Below, in pieces: positions 2,598 through 40,743 of a stretch of 64,000 nucleotides of DNA. The position numbers and the translations under genes are program-made. The notes beneath the pieces are model-generated. The model ran no database searches. It saw only the letters and a list, made by a program, of their open reading frames with translations, and was not told the origin of the DNA. Positions within the stretch are counted from its first letter, which is position 1. Each line of letters opens with the position of its first letter. The stretch lies in assembly GCA_000165345.1 (NCBI GenBank), contig CM000430.1, forward strand, positions 192,001 to 256,000, in the 5' to 3' direction.

Positions 2598-3072
2598 GAT
2601 TTTCTGATCCTTTGTTCTAGCTTTCTTACTTATTTTAAATTCGTTTATTAAGCACACTAATTCAAAATTGCGCCAAAGAGGTTCACAGAATAAATTATGG
2701 GAAAATATATTTCAAACATTACGCGCAAATTAAAACAATAAAGATTTATTTGTTAGTTAATGAAATGGGAGTAATGGGGGTTTCTTTAAACTTTATATAC
2801 ATCCAATCAATCTAAGGATACCCTCCCCCCAAATATTTCTAGTACTTTCTGTCTGTTTCCCCTTATTTATGTGTATACAAGTAGTAACTAAAGTAGAATA
2901 GAAATAACAGTGAAAGATCTCCATATCTGCTCGGTAAAAATGAGGAAACATCTAATTTTTTTTCTCCACAGCAGTCATAAAGTGCAATATTTGATATAGA
3001 ATTAGACTTTACTAATGCTATTCAAATCAACTAAATAATGTGATAAAAAAAAGAATATCTGTCCTTTTTTTT

Positions 3073-3756
3073 TCAAGTAAGTTTAGGATTTTCGTTCATA
3101 GGATTCTCAGGAGACTTCTTCCAATTCTTTTGTAACATCTGAAGAAGTTGAGACCTTTTTAATGTGGGATTCTCATTCTTTAGAATTGGAAGGTTGTTAT
3201 CTACGTAAGCTAGCCATGCAGCTTTTTGTCTCTTCTCTGGATGCATATCTGCACTCTGCTTATCATCAACTCCAAGAGCCAAAAGAGCTTCATCAAGTGT
3301 TGATGCAGAAATATATTCAATATTCTTAGACTCAGTTTCAATCCTAAGTTCTTTCTCAATCCTATTGGGATTCTCCACAAGTAAATCGTCGTATCCTGAC
3401 TCTTCACTTTTGTTGCGAGAAATACCTGAAGAAGACTGCATTGCAAACATCAAAGTTCTTTTCGCTATCTCAGCCTTTGTAAGCTTGTTTCCTGTTGCTG
3501 TCTTGGCTTTGTTTGAAATTATCTTAGAATCTTCTTCCTCATATAACTTCTTTAACTCCTGTTTCTTTTGTTGTTTCTCTTCTTGCTTATTTAATGCCTC
3601 CTTTCTTCTTTCAATCTTCCTATTAGCATGTTTGTCATCATCTCTCCACTTTTCGTTCTCTGCACGTTCCTCCTCTTTTCTCTTCTTTTCTAAAGCTGCT
3701 GCCTGTTTTCTTTCTCGGGCTTCAAGAGCCTTCTGATTCATACCACCATATCCCAT
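3073..3756 (-). CDS. CCDC124: CCDC124 / Lso2-like ribosome-associated coiled-coil protein
   Basis: Lys/Glu-rich N-terminus with WRDDDKHANRK (human: WKDDDKHVMRK); C-terminal PEKRQKAAWLAYVDNNLPILKNENPTLKRSQLLQMLQKNWKKSPENPMN matches the CCDC124 C-terminal domain. Confidence 0.85.
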   Translation of the reverse strand: MGYGGMNQKALEARERKQAAALEKKRKEEERAENEKWRDDDKHANRKIERRKEALNKQEEKQQKKQELKKLYEEEDSKIISNKAKTATGNKLTKAEIAKRTLMFAMQSSSGISRNKSEESGYDDLLVENPNRIEKELRIETESKNIEYISASTLDEALLALGVDDKQSADMHPEKRQKAAWLAYVDNNLPILKNENPTLKRSQLLQMLQKNWKKSPENPMNENPKLT

Positions 3757-4301
3757 CTATTCTCTCATCTAACTAAAGCTTTTTATTCGGTAATTATTAC
3801 TTATTAGATAAATAATAACTCTTATTTCTAATCTTGGGTTAATTCCTTTACATTTATTTCTTAATTATTTTACTCATATAAGATTGAGCGCCAAAATGAC
3901 AAACCTAATTTAAATAGCATGCAAAAGGAATATTAACAAGATTAACACAGATATTACAAACTAGATAAAAAATAGCAATAAAATTACGGTAAAACTATGA
4001 AATCTCTAAATTCATAAATAGCAATATTATAAACAACATCTATTACACCTCTAGTTTTATCCCTGCTAGTTTTCTTTTGAAGTTACTAGCATTTATATGC
4101 TTTTAAGATGCAATTATTAGTACTATAAATATACAACGCGTTTCCCCCACGTAATTTTATTCTTCCTTTATGTGTATAAATACCTTAAATTTCAGTGAAT
4201 GAGTATTTAGTAAGCTGGAAAAAAAAAACTAAATAGCTCATTTTTTTCTTCTTTTTATTTCATTGTATATTTAAAAGTTTTGAGAATCTTTAGTATTTTT
4301 A

Positions 4302-6203
4302 CTAGTAAAGGAATATCCTTCCAGTATCATTCTTATCAAAATTTATGTGACACAAAGGACACTTCCTATTTCTTGATGATAAATTTCTATCAATACAGTC
4401 TCTGCAAAATAGATGTCCGCACCTATTAATTACAGTATCTTTAACTTTATCACAGCATACTGAACATTTCATTAAAGTTAAAAGTTCTTGATTCTCTGAT
4501 TTGAGTGAATTAATTTCTTTATCATAATCATCAATCTGTAGATTTATATTTTCTTCAGTATCATCAAAATTAATCTCCAAGTTGGTGAGCTTATGTACCC
4601 TATTTAGAATATATTGTACTCTGTTCTTAAGGATTGAAATTGTTGTATTATAATTTAATTCTTTATTTTCAATAGATTTCAATTTTTCCTTAAGCTTGCA
4701 ATACTCAGATTTGTAAAATTCAAGATCTAGTTTGTGTTTCTCAGTTATTGTCTTTTGCTCGATTAAAGACTTGTATACATCATTAAAATCATTTCCATGT
4801 TGTGTTTGGTAGTTACTCACTTGTTTATCTTCGCTGAGTTTGTTAATAAAGGATAAATGCTTATTTAAGAATTCAGATATCCTTGTCTCTTGGTTTTGTT
4901 GTATTCTATCAGAGTTAAGTACTTCTCTTGGTGATTCATTTTTGTTGGTTCTTCGAACCAAAGATAACTTCTCCTCATATAAAATCTTAATAGTTTCCAT
5001 TTCTTTGAGAGTTTGCTTAATGTCATCAATCCCTATTTTGAAATCATCATACTCCTTCTCCTTTTCTTTAAGTTTCTGCCGTAAATCGTCACATTCCAAA
5101 CTCTTTTCTTCAAAAGCATTACTTAATTCCTCGTATTCATTCATTAAATTTTCGATTACTTCTTCTTTTTCTCCTTTTTCCAGCTTTAAGTTGACGGTCT
5201 TAATGAACTCTGTTATTCTCATCTTCTCTGATTCAATTTTGCTATTTGCAAGCTCAAGTTCTCTGATTTTCTTTTTTTGCTCTTTATCTCTAGTATCCAA
5301 AGTCCTCTTAGAACTCTCTAAAGAAAATAGATCTTGTTTTAAAGAATTATACCTGTATTTAATATCCTCTAATTCTTGTATTATTACCTTGTTATGTTCC
5401 TCACAACTTTTTTGGTTTGCTAGAAAGTCCTTTATATCTTTAAGCAACTTGCTTTCAATCAAAGTAACGAATTTGAGCTTTTCAGAATTAAGTTGAGTTC
5501 TTAATTCAAAAATTTCTCCTATAATGCTTTGCACACAAATACAAAATTTGTCATCATCATCTTCCTTTTTACTGCTAATTTTCCCTTCAAAACTCTCATA
5601 TGGAGCGCACTTATTCACATTTTTTCTTAACTCGAAATTCTCCTGAGAGATCGCTTCGTACTTATTGGTCAATTCAGAAATTTGTTTTTCTTTTTCAATC
5701 AATTTCGACTTAATATCGCTTGAAATGATGTCAATTCTATCAACCTCAGATGAACAATCGTTTATTGGCTCGCTTAAAGTGGCTCCTTGTCTATTTGATT
5801 GATCAGTTTTACCAGACATACCAATTGAGTTCGTATTGGAGTTTGGATTTCCGGGTGAATAGAATCTTTTGAAGACATTCTGCATACTCAAACGTTGATT
5901 TTCGTTCCTTAAAGACAATATTTCATCATCTTTTTGTTGTATTATATGTTCAAACTTTTTTGATAGATTTTCTTCCTCAGATTTTCCTTCATCTTGAATT
6001 TTGTCAAAGATTGGAACCATTTCAGATATCTTAGCCTCCAGCTCATTAATTCTACGCCTGTACTGTTTACTAGATTCTTGCAGCTGAACTACATGGTAAT
6101 TAGTCAATTCCTGTGATTCTAATGGCAAATTTTCAGCCTTTGAAGAAATAGAGGGTCTTTTTGATTCATTTTCCTCTCTCTTCCTTTTACTAATCATCTC
6201 CAA
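4302..6203 (-). CDS. BRE1: BRE1-type RING E3 ubiquitin ligase (histone H2B monoubiquitination)
   Basis: Long coiled-coil body followed by a C-terminal C3HC4 RING: KCSVCCDKVKDTVINRCGHLFCRDCIDRNLSSRNRKCPLCHINF, with the same spacing and residues as the Bre1/RNF20 RING. Confidence 0.85.
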   Translation of the reverse strand: MEMISKRKREENESKRPSISSKAENLPLESQELTNYHVVQLQESSKQYRRRINELEAKISEMVPIFDKIQDEGKSEEENLSKKFEHIIQQKDDEILSLRNENQRLSMQNVFKRFYSPGNPNSNTNSIGMSGKTDQSNRQGATLSEPINDCSSEVDRIDIISSDIKSKLIEKEKQISELTNKYEAISQENFELRKNVNKCAPYESFEGKISSKKEDDDDKFCICVQSIIGEIFELRTQLNSEKLKFVTLIESKLLKDIKDFLANQKSCEEHNKVIIQELEDIKYRYNSLKQDLFSLESSKRTLDTRDKEQKKKIRELELANSKIESEKMRITEFIKTVNLKLEKGEKEEVIENLMNEYEELSNAFEEKSLECDDLRQKLKEKEKEYDDFKIGIDDIKQTLKEMETIKILYEEKLSLVRRTNKNESPREVLNSDRIQQNQETRISEFLNKHLSFINKLSEDKQVSNYQTQHGNDFNDVYKSLIEQKTITEKHKLDLEFYKSEYCKLKEKLKSIENKELNYNTTISILKNRVQYILNRVHKLTNLEINFDDTEENINLQIDDYDKEINSLKSENQELLTLMKCSVCCDKVKDTVINRCGHLFCRDCIDRNLSSRNRKCPLCHINFDKNDTGRIFLY

Positions 6204-9209: not shown

Positions 9210-11054
9210 TTAGTCCATGTCATCGTTTTGAGAACGGGGCTTTGGACCTCCTGCAGGCTTTGCCATAATGATTTCATCTATTTTAAGAATAGTAACAGCT
9301 GAGTCTGTTGCTAATTTTAAAGCAGAACAAAGAGTGCCCAAATGATCGACAATCAATCCTACTCCCTGCTCATTATTTGAGATACAGTCAATAATTGGAG
9401 AAGTTCCAGAACCACAGAAAACATTTATTCCTTTATGTGGTTGAGAACCTTGTTGATGTATTGCATGTAGTGATGCCAGAAGATCGGTGGAGTTTAGTCC
9501 AGAATTCTCAGCCAATAGTCTTGGGAAAACGTCTAAAGCTTCAGCAAACATATTTACTGCGTACTCCTCCATTCCAGGAACAGGTACATCTACAGAATTT
9601 TGTTGGTATTTGTTTTCAGACTTATCATATGCTCTCAAGCATTTAGAAAGCTCAACAAATGTAGCCCCAGCGCCAGCAACAAATCGATTATCTTTTGTAG
9701 ATGATTTAACAACAGAGACAGAATTCGCAATAGCCCTTTCCATTTCATCCAAAATTCCCTGAGTAGCACCTCTAAGAATAACTGAGCTTACTTTGGTATT
9801 AAGAGCATTAATCACAGTGACCTTCTTCGATCCAATTTCCTCAACCCTGATAGAACTAGCCTTTCCTATTTCTTCTGGAAGAGGAACTCCCAATCTAACC
9901 ATTGCAACAGCTCCAATACTTCGGCAAATGCGCCTCAGTTCCCATTTAGATGTAATTCTTAGAGTTAATATATCGTACTTGTTGCAAAAGTGTTGTGCAA
10001 TATCAGAAATTGGACCGCCTGCGATAATAGCATCGATCTTACCGGTTTGTTTAATATCTTTAATCAAGTTTTCAACCAGAGATTCCTCACCTCTAGTAAA
10101 ATCCAAAAGCTCTTGAGCATTATTTAAAACAACTGTACCTTTCGCCTCTGTTCCAGTCATCTCTAGTCCACATCCTAAAACCATAACATTTGAGACCTTT
10201 TCCAATTTTCTTATTGTACCTCCAGGCTCTCTATTAACCATCATACCATTTATTGTAAATGATTGCATTGGGGATCCTCCCAAAAGCTTAACAATTCTTA
10301 CATTGTCTATATTGAATTCTTTTAATTTATCTTCATCTGGCATTATGCTTGTAATGGCTTCACATGTCAATCTCGTAATTAAATCAGAATATCCTATATT
10401 CTTTGTTGAAACCAAAGGCCTTACAATTCCAGATAAGTCACTAACATTCTTAAAATTAGCAACTCTATGTGCTACCATTCCATTTAGTAAAGATAATGAT
10501 CTTTCTAAGGCTATTTCATATCCTGCTACAATATCTGAAGGATGTAAACCATTATCATTAAGTAGCTTTGCAGCATTTCTTAATAATTCTCCTGCAAATA
10601 TCAAAACTGTATTGCTCGCATCACCGTACTCTTCAGCCTGCCTCTTACATGCCATTACTACCATATTTGCTGCTGGATGCTGGATATCAAGTTCTTCTAT
10701 AATTGTTGACAAGTCACTAGTGATGAACTGTTTTCCAAGATGATTCACAATTAACTTATTCATGCTATTTGGACCATATGATGTTTGAGTCATCTCACTT
10801 AAATTTACGCAAGCCTCAATATTCCTCAATACGGCCTCATCCAGGCCGGAAAATGCCCTGCTTCCATCTTTTAATAAATTTGTAATTCCTGGTCTTAATT
10901 GGAACTAAAAACAATCAGAGGAAATTAATTAATGAAAATAATAATTAAAAAAATTGACCAATAAGTAGCTCAAGCTAAAAAGAATGAAGGCAAATGGGCC
11001 ATATCGCCATGTTCACCTTATTATTGACCAATTTTTATACTCTAAACTTACCAT
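9210..11054 (-). CDS. CCT8: T-complex protein 1 subunit theta (CCT8). Two exons: exon 1 is the ATG only (11054..11052), intron 11051..10905, exon 2 10904..9210
   Basis: The C-terminus IIMAKPAGGPKPRSQNDDMD matches human CCT8 IIMAKPAGGPKPPSGKKDWDDDQND; the equatorial-domain motifs are present. The open frame upstream of the ORF-track start reads FQLRPGITNLLKDGSRAFSGLDEAVLRNIEAC (human: PGFAQMLKEGAKHFSGLEEAVYRNIQAC) and ends at an acceptor tttttag; 147 nt further upstream lies ATG|GTAAGT. Confidence 0.85.
10905..11051 (-). other. Spliceosomal intron (147 nt) placed immediately after the start codon of CCT8
   Basis: Minus-strand ATG at 11054-11052 is followed directly by GTAAGT; acceptor TGTTTTTAG ends at 10905; the splice restores the conserved CCT8 N-terminus. 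Confidence 0.7.
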
Positions 11055-11507
11055 TGCTTCCTATTCTTTTTTTCTTGGCCAAACAATTTTAAATTAATTG
11101 GTATAATTGACCACACAATACACCCTCTTTCTAAAAAAAAAACAAGAAAAAATGTATTTCCACTTCGCAAACTTCTTCCGGTTCCCCCCTATTTGGCTCA
11201 TTTTCAAGTATGAGACATGATGTCTTTAATGATTATTTGAAGGGCTCTATGTTTCCCGCCTATTCTTAAAAAATTATATTAAAAATATACTATGGGGAAA
11301 AAGTTAAGTATTGTGTGGAAAATATGTTTTCTGAGTAAAAATTTGTTGAAATAAAAAAGTGCAATATTTTGACCAAACATTGAAGTTTTGTGATAGTTAT
11401 TGAATAGCTTGGTTGAACACACAATATCGGGCATTTTTGAAGTTCTAATGGTTGATTTTGAAGTAAAATGCTAAATATATTGAAAATATAGGAAAATAAA
11501 TAAGAAA

Positions 11508-36562: not shown

Positions 36563-38326
<1,764 letters not shown>

Positions 38327-38697
38327 TATAACCCAAAAGCAACAATCGATGGACAAGGCAAGTCGAAGCCATGGTCCAAAGTGGTAAGCAGACAACCACA
38401 AAGAAATTGGGGGGTCTAAACCAGCTTAATAGAGACAAGGTTCTTGGTTCATGAAAACTATTTATCGGAGGGAACAGAGGAACTGATCATTTGTGCTAAC
38501 AGCTCAGCTATCTTTGTTTTTTCGGCTATTGAGAATGTTCTTCTCAGCCGGTGCTGAAAACATCACGGCTGCAATAGCAATATAATCAGCGTTGCAGTCT
38601 TCAGGTAAAATGAAGACAAGTGATTTTTACGCAGGCCTTACCTTGACGCATTCGAGGTGGAGCGAAGACATATCCGCACGTACCCAGCTACTAAAAG

Positions 38698-38726
38698 TTT
38701 GGCGCCTTGCGGTAATGGCGGTAGCG
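38698..38726. promoter_or_regulatory. Paired E2F-like motifs TTTGGCGCC ... GGCGG inside the GC-rich helicase-Rpn9 spacer
   Basis: aaagtttggcgccttgcggtaatggcggtagcg read directly from the sequence. Confidence 0.35.
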
Positions 38727-39450
38727 TTGTAACATTGAGAAAATGAAATAAGACAGCATGCAGGAGTGGATCTAACTAGTTCAACATGTTTAGAGGAATA
38801 AGGATGTTGCGCGTATTCTTTCGGTTATATTATCTGTGCGAAAATAACTGAGTGCGCTGTTTTATTGTGGGCAATTACAAGAGTTCATATTGGTCTTTTG
38901 TGGTGCGAATGAGGCTGTCATTCTTTTTGCTTATACGTTTATTCGTCTTTAGTTGTTAGGGACTAGTTGCTGAGTACCAGAATCCAAACTTTAGCATTTA
39001 TTTCTTTGAAGGACTCCCTCAGTATTACGAGTCTTTCCGCCTGTTGCGAAAAAAAAAATCAAACTCAGGCTTCAGTTCCCAGAAGAATTGCGTTTCCGAC
39101 GAGTATATATGGTTTTGTAGATAATTTGAGTATTAGATATTGGCTTTGTTGTGTTAATTTATTATTTAAGATATTTGTTTTTGTTCGGAATTTTTTCACT
39201 TGGACACATGTTGTGGCTCCTTGAGGGATGTGAATTATATACCGGCATTGGGCGCCAACAGCCTTTTGCATTGAGTGGGAGGGGGGAGAGGGGAAGACTA
39301 AGCTTAACAGACTTTCTTCTTTGGAAGGATCCACCATTGACAAAGAGTGTAAACAAATCATAGATATTCTCAAATAGAGTTTCTTGAGAGAATCTAGTTA
39401 AACAAAAGATTGAGGGAACGTAGAACGGAAAGGCTTGGGAAACAAAAGCA

Positions 39451-40743
39451 ATGATGGAATCTAGGACTCCATTGGAACAGCTAGAAATAGAGCTCAATAA
39501 GAGAGTTGAGCACAAGGAGCAGATTGAACAGTTAAAGTCTTATTTGAAGGAAAAGTTATATTTTCAGTTTTTGGAATCCTCTTTGGAATATATTTCTACT
39601 GATGGTCTCAAGGTTTGCGGAAACGAACTATGCGAATTCTTGGTAAATGCAGTTGAACCACTTAAAAGTAACTTTGATCCTTTGAGGTATGCAGTGTTTG
39701 TTGGGGAGGTTTTATCGAGGAGCCCCATCAGTATCCAAGAAAAGGTGGAGCTTCTCAAAAAAACAATGGGAGATGAGGATTTATATCAAGTAAAAGAAAA
39801 TTACAAGAATGCGAGCTTGACTCAAGAACAAAATATTGCACCAAAACAAGAAATCAAGGGTGATCTATACTTTAGATGCTTGCTAGCATTGGAGTATTCC
39901 AAGTCCAAGGATCTAAGTGTCGATTGTGAGGAAATGCTCGAGTTTTTAACCAAAAAGTTGGAGTTTTATAGGGGACTTGAGGCTGAAATATTAGCTTTAT
40001 ATCATCGTTCATATGCCTCTTATGAGAAAACAATGGGGAGAGTGAGCAGGTTTTACAGACAAACTATACACTACTTATCTTATACTCCTCTCAACAAAAT
40101 ACCTTATAAAGAAAAACCATCTTTGGTTTACGAGCTAATTATGGCTGCAGTCATTTCTGAAGAAATATATAATATGGGTGAGCTTGTTCTTCATCCAATT
40201 GTTCAGGAATTTAGTTCCATAGTTAAAGGAAATAACTCTAATCAGATGATAGATGAACTGACAAAAAAAGAGTTTGCAGAAAACGCATGGATACTTGAAA
40301 TATTAGTTTCATTGCATGAAGGTGATCTTAACTCTTTTATGAATGCTATTACAAAGTATCAAGATAAGGTTAGTAAAACCCCACTTTCCACTCCAGATGC
40401 CAGGGTATGCATTACCAAAAAGACTGCAACTCTAGCACTTATGGACTTAGCCTTTAGGAAGAATAAGAACGAGAGAGTTCTCACTTTTGACGAAATTGCA
40501 AAGCATTGTAGGATTGGAGCAAATGAAATTGAGCTATTAGTCATGAAGGCAATTAATATGAACTTGATAAAAGGTATTATTGACCAGGCTTCTCAGACTG
40601 TAGAAATTAGTTGGGTACACTCTAGAGTATTAGACAAAACAAGAATGAAATTATTAATGGACAAGATTGATAATTGGATCGGTTCCACCACGGATATTGT
40701 TTCCCAACTTGAGAATATTGCTCCTGAGCTTGTGAATTCCTAA
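39451..40743 (+). CDS. RPN9: 26S proteasome regulatory (lid) subunit Rpn9 / PSMD13, PCI domain
   Basis: C-terminal FDEIAKHCRIGANEIELLVMKAINMNLIKGIIDQASQTVEISWVHSRVLD matches PSMD13 [50 protein letters not shown]. Confidence 0.85.
   Translation: MMESRTPLEQLEIELNKRVEHKEQIEQLKSYLKEKLYFQFLESSLEYISTDGLKVCGNELCEFLVNAVEPLKSNFDPLRYAVFVGEVLSRSPISIQEKVELLKKTMGDEDLYQVKENYKNASLTQEQNIAPKQEIKGDLYFRCLLALEYSKSKDLSVDCEEMLEFLTKKLEFYRGLEAEILALYHRSYASYEKTMGRVSRFYRQTIHYLSYTPLNKIPYKEKPSLVYELIMAAVISEEIYNMGELVLHPIVQEFSSIVKGNNSNQMIDELTKKEFAENAWILEILVSLHEGDLNSFMNAITKYQDKVSKTPLSTPDARVCITKKTATLALMDLAFRKNKNERVLTFDEIAKHCRIGANEIELLVMKAINMNLIKGIIDQASQTVEISWVHSRVLDKTRMKLLMDKIDNWIGSTTDIVSQLENIAPELVNS

Follow-up and report, generated by a model that had tools for sequence, protein, structure and literature searches.

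The locus and its conserved core

The window analyzed here comprises 64,000 nucleotides (nt) of Cryptosporidium parvum-type DNA (GenBank assembly GCA_000165345.1, contig CM000430.1, positions 192,001–256,000 of the forward strand), and the subject of this report is a conserved element within it, referred to as the core (38498–~38690), which we read as a small non-coding RNA (ncRNA) gene. The core lies on chromosome 2 in a spacer of 1124 nt (38327–39450) between two plus-strand genes: a DEAD-box helicase gene of the DDX5/p68 type upstream (36566–38326), and the proteasome gene Rpn9 downstream (39451–40743), the protein of which is identical to one from a C. parvum-type assembly and has relatives that are all Cryptosporidium Rpn9 proteins. 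A first-pass annotation of the window had proposed this 1.1-kilobase (kb) block as a structured ncRNA locus, based on a raised content of guanine plus cytosine (GC) and on the lack of open reading frames (ORFs) of at least 60 amino acids (aa). The compositional signal is real, with a GC content of 0.405 for 38330–39450 and 0.41 for 38400–39060 as compared with 0.326 for the whole window, and it stays at 0.39–0.44 along the entire block. The spacer is among the longest ORF-free segments of the window and tops the other 21 such segments of at least 300 nt, which have GC contents of 0.23–0.36.

The statement on ORFs is correct for 38330–38966, where the largest ORF has 55 aa, but not for 38967–39515, where mechanical ORFs of 70, 85, 102 and 117 aa with TTG or GTG starts are present. 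All of these are disrupted by stops or frameshifts in both C. tyzzeri (97% identical DNA) and C. ubiquitum, and we therefore consider the spacer to be non-coding. The core itself has stops in every frame and indels between species. A coding exon or micro-ORF was rejected because of the stops in all frames and the broken state of the 70–117 aa ORFs in close relatives. No transfer RNA was found.

We compared the window sequence with nine syntenic loci, from C. tyzzeri, C. ubiquitum, SRR31860986, C. canis, C. felis, C. xiaoi, C. ryanae, C. andersoni and C. serpentis, giving the ten species referred to below, of which C. andersoni and C. serpentis are the gastric species. Close species align across most of the spacer, whereas the distant ones align solely at 38498–~38680, and neither the flanks of the core nor other spacers give any alignment in them. 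As judged by blastn against C. felis, C. canis, C. xiaoi, C. ryanae and C. andersoni, the core has a nucleotide identity of 83–89% and is better conserved at this level than the adjacent helicase and proteasome genes; the Rpn9 protein is only 49% identical between C. parvum and C. andersoni. Because this identity is seen in all other species while the flanks fail to align, we judge from the alignments that the conservation of 38498–~38690 exceeds chance.

The boundaries of the conserved unit differ in character. The left boundary is razor-sharp at 38498/38499 in multiple alignments, and on the right, past the invariant block, conservation fades to islands until ~38690, which makes the right end of the unit approximate. 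The invariant block comprises 52 nt (38568–38619) that are identical in the ten species with the exception of one C. canis base, and it forms most of an ultraconserved block at 38568–38623, which on the minus strand holds two hairpins defined by invariant columns: CUGCAA/UUGCAG (38569–38597) and GUCUUCA/UGAAGAC (38597–38617). We provisionally place the whole unit on the minus strand, which is preferred for reasons given below, and in that orientation its 5′ part (38627–38690) is semi-conserved, with a variable linker and the islands CACCUCAAUUGCGU, GUCU and UACGU. The window contains no second copy or paralogue of the core and no target, as far as found, of an invariant 15-mer located at its left edge. 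Homologues beyond the genus were sought with an invariant 24-mer, which gave no exact match in the JGI metagenome contigs. Just to the right of the core, C. andersoni (locus 5480–5525) and C. serpentis (~5960–6000) carry an extra, near-perfect AT-rich palindrome (UAUUGUAUUUAAUACAAUA) that the other species lack.

The relationship of the core to its neighbors is best seen in C. xiaoi and C. ryanae, in which the helicase gene is absent from the locus and the core is retained. The helicase slot (locus 2848–5230 in C. xiaoi and 2934–5224 in C. ryanae), filled by the gene in all other species, is taken up here by ~2.4–3.1 kb of AT-rich DNA that is free of ORFs and Ns and in which tblastn finds no remnant; no C. 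xiaoi or C. ryanae orthologue is present among the 120 best helicase matches. A helicase that is normally essential may have been lost or relocated in a lineage-specific manner. Between these two species there are three conserved islands and no others: the end of the RRM gene, the core (here corresponding to 38494–~38708), and the last 200 nt ahead of Rpn9. The surroundings of the core are AT-rich and unconserved in both, and the stretch between the core and the Rpn9 promoter shows no conservation. Since the core is kept where the helicase is gone, and since Rpn9 has its own proximal promoter, we take the core to be an independent, single-copy small RNA gene. An element of the helicase 3′ untranslated region (UTR) was rejected because the core is retained in the two species without a helicase gene. 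The long 5′ UTR that the first-pass annotation had listed as an option did not hold up either, and is unlikely for Rpn9: this gene has its own E2F-like and G-box cluster at −200 to −150, its start is separated from the core by nine ATGs, and the intervening sequence is not conserved between C. xiaoi and C. ryanae.

Secondary structure, box C/D motif and strand

The strongest structural feature of the core is a hairpin, hairpin P (38523–38550, minus strand), which consists of stem 1 (CGGCU/AGCCG), a 3-nt bulge, and stem 2 (GAGAA/UUCUC). Stem 2, of 5–6 base pairs (bp), pairs in spite of differing sequences: GAGAA/UUCUC, GAGGA/UCCUC, GGAAC/GUUCC, and GAAGAU/AUCUUC. In the lower stem, a C–G pair is replaced by U–A in the gastric species, and altogether four pairs of the hairpin are altered on both sides. 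We evaluated pairing over three helices, namely the two stems of hairpin P and the invariant hairpin at 38597–38617, and found standard pairs in 97.6% of the minus-strand cells, as compared with 25–49% when the partners were slid. The comparison with related species that the first-pass annotation had suggested as a check thus yields compensatory changes in hairpin P, with a covariation score that none of 500 shuffles reached. Fold z-scores for the ultraconserved block are −3.3 on the minus and −4.3 on the plus strand. The inverted repeat singled out earlier, cagccggtg (38545–38553)/cacggctg (38564–38571), does exist in the window sequence, but its pairing is lost through C·A mismatches in C. 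felis, C. xiaoi, C. ryanae, C. andersoni and C. serpentis; the pairing that is conserved joins AGCCG (38546–38550) to CGGCU (38523–38527) and is backed by compensatory change.

A motif scan, together with the invariance of the residues involved, places a box C/D module with kink-turn (K-turn) geometry around this hairpin (38499–38572, minus strand): 5′ stem strand GCAGC (38572–38568); C box GUGAUGU (38566–38560); D box CUGA (38507–38504); and 3′ stem strand GCUGU (38503–38499). Read from 38572 to 38499, the module has the canonical arrangement 5′-GCAGC-(YRU)-GAUGU…AG-CUGA-GCUGU-3′, with a length of 74 nt, a terminal stem of 5 bp, a 3-nt bulge, and the GA of the D box abutting the stem. The complete motif is present on the minus strand only; among 5000 dinucleotide shuffles of the core, 35 (0.7%) yield a comparable one, and ~0.06 are expected from the window background. 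The box and stem bases are all invariant in the ten species. The C box reads GUGAUGU or AUGAUGU, where UGAUGU is invariant and position 1 is G or A only, and the variable bases beside it, 38566 and 38567, are exactly the bulge positions L1 and L2. Conservation breaks off 1 nt past the terminal stem, matching the 3′ end expected for a small nucleolar RNA (snoRNA), and the spacer from the C box to the D′ box is 12 nt. The terminal stem, being invariant, gives no covariation evidence. The C/D family sn2343 of Rfam matches weakly (E=4.5). As a separate observation, a loose scan for a C box, a D box and a terminal stem returned 17 other matches in the 64 kb, one of which (11229–11334, plus strand) falls in an ORF-free segment (10794–11507); these matches are probably mostly chance.

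We infer that the minus strand is probably the transcribed one, because the C/D motif is found there only, because substitutions in the helices are wobble-compatible there, and because an E2F-like site common to all species lies upstream in that orientation. Three substitutions within conserved helices (38600 in C. canis; stem 1 in C. felis and in the gastric clade) give U·G on the minus and C·A on the plus strand, and standard-pair cells number 166 of 170 on the minus versus 161 of 170 on the plus strand. The E2F-like site, TTTGGCGCC (38698–38706, no strand assigned), lies immediately beyond the RNA unit on the right and is a putative minus-strand promoter element. A related motif occurs at the same place in all species (TTTGGCGG in C. 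ryanae, TTTCCGCC in C. felis, TGGCGCT in the gastric species), the site falls within the island conserved between C. xiaoi and C. ryanae, and it is the sole promoter-type motif shared by all species. More generally, GGCGCC/TTTSSCGC, the E2F-like promoter motif of Cryptosporidium, is far more frequent in the window than expected: GGCGCC occurs 16 times versus 0.9 expected (sites include 7068, 12817, 25184, 31550, 36200, 38701, 39251 and 61648), and TTTSSCGC 12 times versus 2 expected. The E2F-like motifs noted earlier in the block are confirmed as GGCGCC at 38701–38706 and 39251–39256.

Class of the RNA and competing explanations

We propose, with a probability of about 0.45, that the core encodes a minus-strand RNA with a 3′ box C/D K-turn module and an ultraconserved two-hairpin 5′ extension. 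The locus would then hold one independent, single-copy ncRNA gene of ~190 nt in an ordinary GC-rich Cryptosporidium spacer, transcribed from the minus strand, opposite to both neighbors, from a promoter that would include the E2F-like site at 38698–38706. The 3′ 74 nt would fold as the C/D K-turn module around the covarying hairpin, and by analogy with known RNAs of this kind the module would recruit Snu13, Nop56/58 and fibrillarin, and in this way stabilize the RNA and set its 3′ end. The conservation, the non-coding status, the independence of both neighboring genes, the covariation of the hairpin, the presence and invariance of the C/D motif and the lack of an Rfam match are demonstrated here, whereas the strand, such assembly, the promoter and any target are what we infer. 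The two-hairpin 5′ extension of ~55 nt would be the working part, pairing with or chaperoning another invariant RNA, as in the extended C/D RNAs that act through a 5′ domain (U3, U8, U13 and snR4/45). If it is a C/D RNA, the core is not a textbook methylation guide.

Several observations weigh against this assignment. The C box ends in U instead of A, which is one deviation from RUGAUGA; no C′ box is recognizable in the alignment; and the D′ box is CUGA in five of the ten species and UUGA, CUGG or UUGG elsewhere, although C′/D′ boxes are often degenerate in eukaryotes. Upstream of the D box, variation sets in after 6 nt, and the most conserved part of the core sits outside the C/D module, which would be unusual in a methylation guide. 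On the minus strand, moreover, the hairpin CUGCAA/UUGCAG and the terminal stem compete for GCAG. With respect to strand, the two strands are on a par in alignment-fold energy (−32.9 versus −33.0 kcal/mol) and in the corresponding z-scores (about −1.7 to −2.5), three loop-closing pairs (in C. ubiquitum, C. canis and C. serpentis) are G·U on the plus strand only, a plus-strand closing helix ACAGCUCAG/UUGAGGUG is possible with G·U in eight of nine species, and close species carry a G-box to the left of the core, which places promoter motifs on both sides.

Complementarity to ribosomal RNA (rRNA) yielded no convincing guide, as far as can be judged from a set of 10–120 metagenomic eukaryotic ribosomal DNA (rDNA) loci, used in place of Cryptosporidium's own rRNA and small nuclear RNAs (snRNAs). 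For the D′ guide (UCAGCA-N-CGG), 120 such loci contain no conserved match. Several minus-strand matches of 9–10 bp were found, but complementarity is not enriched over shuffles on either strand (invariant block, P=0.13; core, P=0.49). One weak lead is GACUGCAACG followed by CUGA (38586–38599, minus strand), a possible guide with a D′-like box. It is complementary to the universal 18S segment UGUUGCAGUU through eight Watson–Crick and two G·U pairs, in 10 of 10 metagenomic eukaryotic rDNA loci, and it sits upstream of the C box, which is a non-canonical arrangement.

Comparison with established families leaves the core without a match. The Rfam 15 covariance models were run at gathering thresholds on the whole 64 kb, and at E≤10 on 38200–39500, 38480–38770 and the C. 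andersoni orthologue; the former gave no match, and the latter gave chance-level matches of 13–22 bits only. The Rfam scan proposed in the first-pass annotation thus returned no family, and none of those it had named (snRNA, RNase P/MRP, signal recognition particle (SRP) and telomerase RNA) fits the core; its snoRNA suggestion comes near what we regard as the best-fitting class, although as a box C/D RNA on the opposite strand, and around a hairpin other than the one it cited. U1, U2, U4, U5, U6, U3, SRP and RNase P RNAs have been reported in C. parvum by Rfam gathering cut-offs, and none of them is in the window by the Rfam scan. A published C. parvum RNase MRP RNA candidate is located on chromosome 4; the CR-I and CR-V elements of RNase MRP/P (P4, GAAAGUC-type) were found neither by Rfam nor by eye, and RNase MRP RNA was rejected on account of this candidate and the missing Rfam match. 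The telomere repeat was confirmed as CCTAAA. A scan for permutations of it of at least 7 nt, in ten spacers and on both strands, found no conserved template: the matches are isolated, of 7–8 nt and in non-homologous places, with none in SRR31860986 or C. andersoni, and telomerase RNA was excluded on this basis. An H/ACA RNA on the plus strand was rejected on account of its wrong pocket geometry, despite the invariant ACAUCA and ACAAGU: the internal loop of the 5′ hairpin has 2 nt on its 3′ side, and the last hairpin, of 21 nt, has no pocket. A U7-like RNA (5′ ACAGCUC, Sm-like site UUUGUC, hairpin) would leave 70 further invariant nt unexplained. Resemblances by eye to segments of 5.8S, U2 and U4 were treated as chance. 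As to a link with the host-delivered transcript Cdg2_FLc_0220, the literature found cites the name only.

The opposite orientation provides the most direct challenge, in the form of a plus-strand small RNA, either snRNA-like or a novel trans-acting one. It would start at the invariant 15-mer ACAGCUCAGCUAUCU and continue through a U-rich stretch, hairpin P, the two invariant hairpins and a variable 3′ part, with its 5′ end and loops contacting a target or proteins. The sharp left edge would then be a 5′ end, which in snRNAs is typically functional. A closed fold of several hairpins, with a long-range helix and G·U pairs specific to this strand, is obtained with RNAalifold, and loop-closing wobbles occur in C. 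ubiquitum, C. canis and C. serpentis; a mini-hairpin GCUG/YRGC accommodates all four observed variants, C. andersoni has a GUAA tetraloop, and in close species a G-box and an AGAGACA block lie 50–90 nt upstream. The U-rich segment RRUUUGUCGG, finally, resembles the U7-type Sm site, which is AAUUUGUCUAG. A check on the plus strand against the Sm-type consensus RAU(3-6)GR, however, shows that in the U-rich stretch 38514–38522 before hairpin P both the leading A and the trailing G vary (GGUUUGUC, GAUUUAUC, ACUUUGUC, AGUUGUC), such that the A of the putative site is not conserved. Nor is there any Rfam snRNA match even at E≤10, the closing helix is interrupted mid-way by C·U in the gastric species with no compensatory change, the three mid-helix substitutions turn into C·A mismatches, and the all-species E2F-like site would be downstream of the gene. 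The invariant segments ACAUCA, CAGCUCAG and CUAUCU are also left unexplained, whereas the C/D assignment accounts for the first two. Based on these observations we consider a plus-strand RNA doubtful. A second plus-strand explanation, a non-coding messenger RNA exon or cis-regulatory structure (a Rpn9 5′-UTR exon or a helicase 3′-UTR element), would use ACAG (38499–38502) and the invariant CAG/GUAAAAU (38602–38610), which resembles a good 5′ splice site in the loop region of the perfect 7-bp hairpin 38597–38617, as its splice boundaries and could regulate splicing. The AG and GUAAAA indeed bracket a block of 102 nt (38503–38604), conservation fades ~20 nt past the GU in an intron-start-like manner, and Rpn9 always follows the core, with both on one strand. 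We nevertheless find this improbable, given the conserved promoter cluster of Rpn9 150–200 nt before its ATG and the missing core-to-promoter conservation between C. xiaoi and C. ryanae, in which the absence of the helicase gene also excludes a helicase link. Such an exon would have stops in all frames and indels, would lack a conserved polypyrimidine or branch-site context before ACAG, and would need an intron of about 550–850 nt, which is long for Cryptosporidium. The minus strand of the same loop (38602–38610) reads UUUUACC, recalling motifs of the U1 5′ end and U5 loop 1, a resemblance treated as coincidence.

The two explanations that dispense with a compact RNA gene fare worse. In one, the entire 1.1-kb block is a single long structured RNA (telomerase, RNase P/MRP or SRP) or long non-coding RNA (lncRNA), of which the core is a domain. 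The raised GC content of 0.39–0.44 throughout the block agrees with this, as does a parvum–ubiquitum conservation higher than in the RRM–helicase spacer, and to our knowledge no telomerase RNA has been identified in Cryptosporidium, a literature search having found no such report. The block has no Rfam match, however, and no conserved CCTAAA permutation of at least 8 nt on either strand at any alignment position; the MRP candidate is on chromosome 4, and the P and SRP RNAs reported in C. parvum through Rfam are not detected in the window by the Rfam scan. Outside the core nothing aligns past close species, the surroundings in C. xiaoi and C. ryanae are AT-rich and unconserved, and the remaining conserved blocks are promoter-type motifs, all of which makes a long RNA highly improbable. 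We give equally little credence to conservation at the level of DNA, as a composite regulatory or chromatin element with no RNA product: promoter-type motifs do occur on both flanks of the core, but a 52-bp invariant run accompanied by helices that keep pairing through double substitutions and wobble transitions is a signature of RNA structure, and the fold z-scores of −2.4 to −4.3 point the same way.

Rest of the spacer and relation to known RNAs

The ncRNA proposal of the first-pass annotation is thus upheld in part, in that the locus does contain a conserved, structured ncRNA element, but this occupies only ~190 nt of the 1.1 kb. Apart from this element, the block resembles promoter and UTR sequence with E2F-like and G-box motifs. 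On the helicase side, a plus-strand block at 38401–38450, found in C. parvum, C. ubiquitum, SRR31860986 and C. canis only, combines the G-box TTGGGGGGTC with a small hairpin, AAACCA/UGGUU, which in C. canis is AACCG/CGGUU with one compensatory change; it sits 75–125 nt past the helicase stop codon, and is probably a helicase 3′ UTR or local promoter element outside the deeply conserved unit. The helicase of C. canis is annotated as two adjacent genes (locus 3596–4401 and 4460–4951) and is found in several frames by tblastn, which probably reflects assembly frameshift errors or a pseudogenizing change. On the Rpn9 side, the proximal promoter cluster (39229–39300, plus strand) consists of GGGCGCCAA (39250–39258) and the G-box GTGGGAGGGGGGAGAGGGG (39275–39293); it is located 150–200 nt before the ATG, is conserved in C. 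parvum, C. ubiquitum, SRR31860986 and C. canis, and is recognizable in C. felis, C. xiaoi and C. ryanae. A further patch at 38996–39100, which contains TTTCCGCC, is conserved among close species only, and we take both 38996–39100 and 39229–39300 as promoter-type sequence. The parvum–ubiquitum identity is 0.6–0.9 over the whole spacer versus 0.45–0.6 in the neighboring RRM–helicase spacer. In 38700–39230, where the GC content is 0.39 and this identity is 0.6–0.86, an lncRNA or an extended promoter over part of the interval is possible. The GC-rich, ORF-free signal that drew attention to the locus is accordingly mostly promoter and UTR, and the true feature amounts to about one-sixth of the flagged interval.

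The closest parallels to the C/D assignment of the core are U3, U8/SNORD118, U13/SNORD13 and yeast snR4/snR45. Like these, the core would have a terminal C (or C′)/D K-turn with a stem of 4–5 bp, a 3′ domain enclosing an internal hairpin, and outside the module a longer 5′ domain that is highly conserved, and it is an independent gene that is single-copy in the available sequence. It differs from them in that it has no Rfam match, none of their defining boxes (such as the U3 boxes A/A′/B), a C box of the form RUGAUGU and no statistically supported complementarity to rRNA, and in that its 5′ domain consists of two short hairpins, whereas that of the U3/U8/U13 type is a single-stranded antisense segment. 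With methylation-guide snoRNAs the core shares a module of 74 nt from C/D stem to stem, the 12-nt C-to-D′ spacing and a conservation edge at the 3′ end of the stem. SNORD36 and SNORD96 are the methylation-guide C/D snoRNAs that Rfam finds in C. parvum, and unlike in RNAs of that type, the guide positions before D/D′ in the core are variable or have no conserved rRNA target. The telomerase RNA of trypanosomatids reportedly carries a C/D box domain as well, and the core would resemble it as a larger functional RNA stabilized by a 3′ C/D module, but has no CCTAAA/TTTAGG template anywhere in the unit.

The survey by Li et al. 2022 (PMC9465071) of the small and intermediate ncRNAs of C. parvum describes 79 novel ncRNAs, of which 28 are conserved in all ten species examined there; its new C/D snoRNAs number three, and one of these is shared by all species. 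The core fits the description of these ncRNAs and may be among them; the text of the survey gives no sequence for this locus. We therefore rate the core as a new, or at least functionally uncharacterized, RNA of a known kind. A more far-reaching interpretation, which we regard as rather unlikely, is that of a Cryptosporidium-specific K-turn ribonucleoprotein whose 52-nt invariant two-hairpin domain would perform an essential new job, for example as a chaperone of pre-rRNA or snRNA, or, were the plus strand transcribed, that of an snRNA-like RNA or a splice-site-sequestering exon.

The box C/D snoRNAs reported for Cryptosporidium are few, and no function has been assigned to the majority of its conserved small RNAs. 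Against this background, the locus offers a precisely delimited RNA with a testable class, the box C/D K-turn, and the core provides a clean marker that is conserved across all sampled species. Under the more far-reaching interpretation above, the invariance of this RNA in a genus whose proteins have diverged by ~50% would make it a candidate for an essential, parasite-specific RNA, and an RNA that is both essential and parasite-specific would provide a handle on ribosome and RNA processing in a pathogen with few drug targets.

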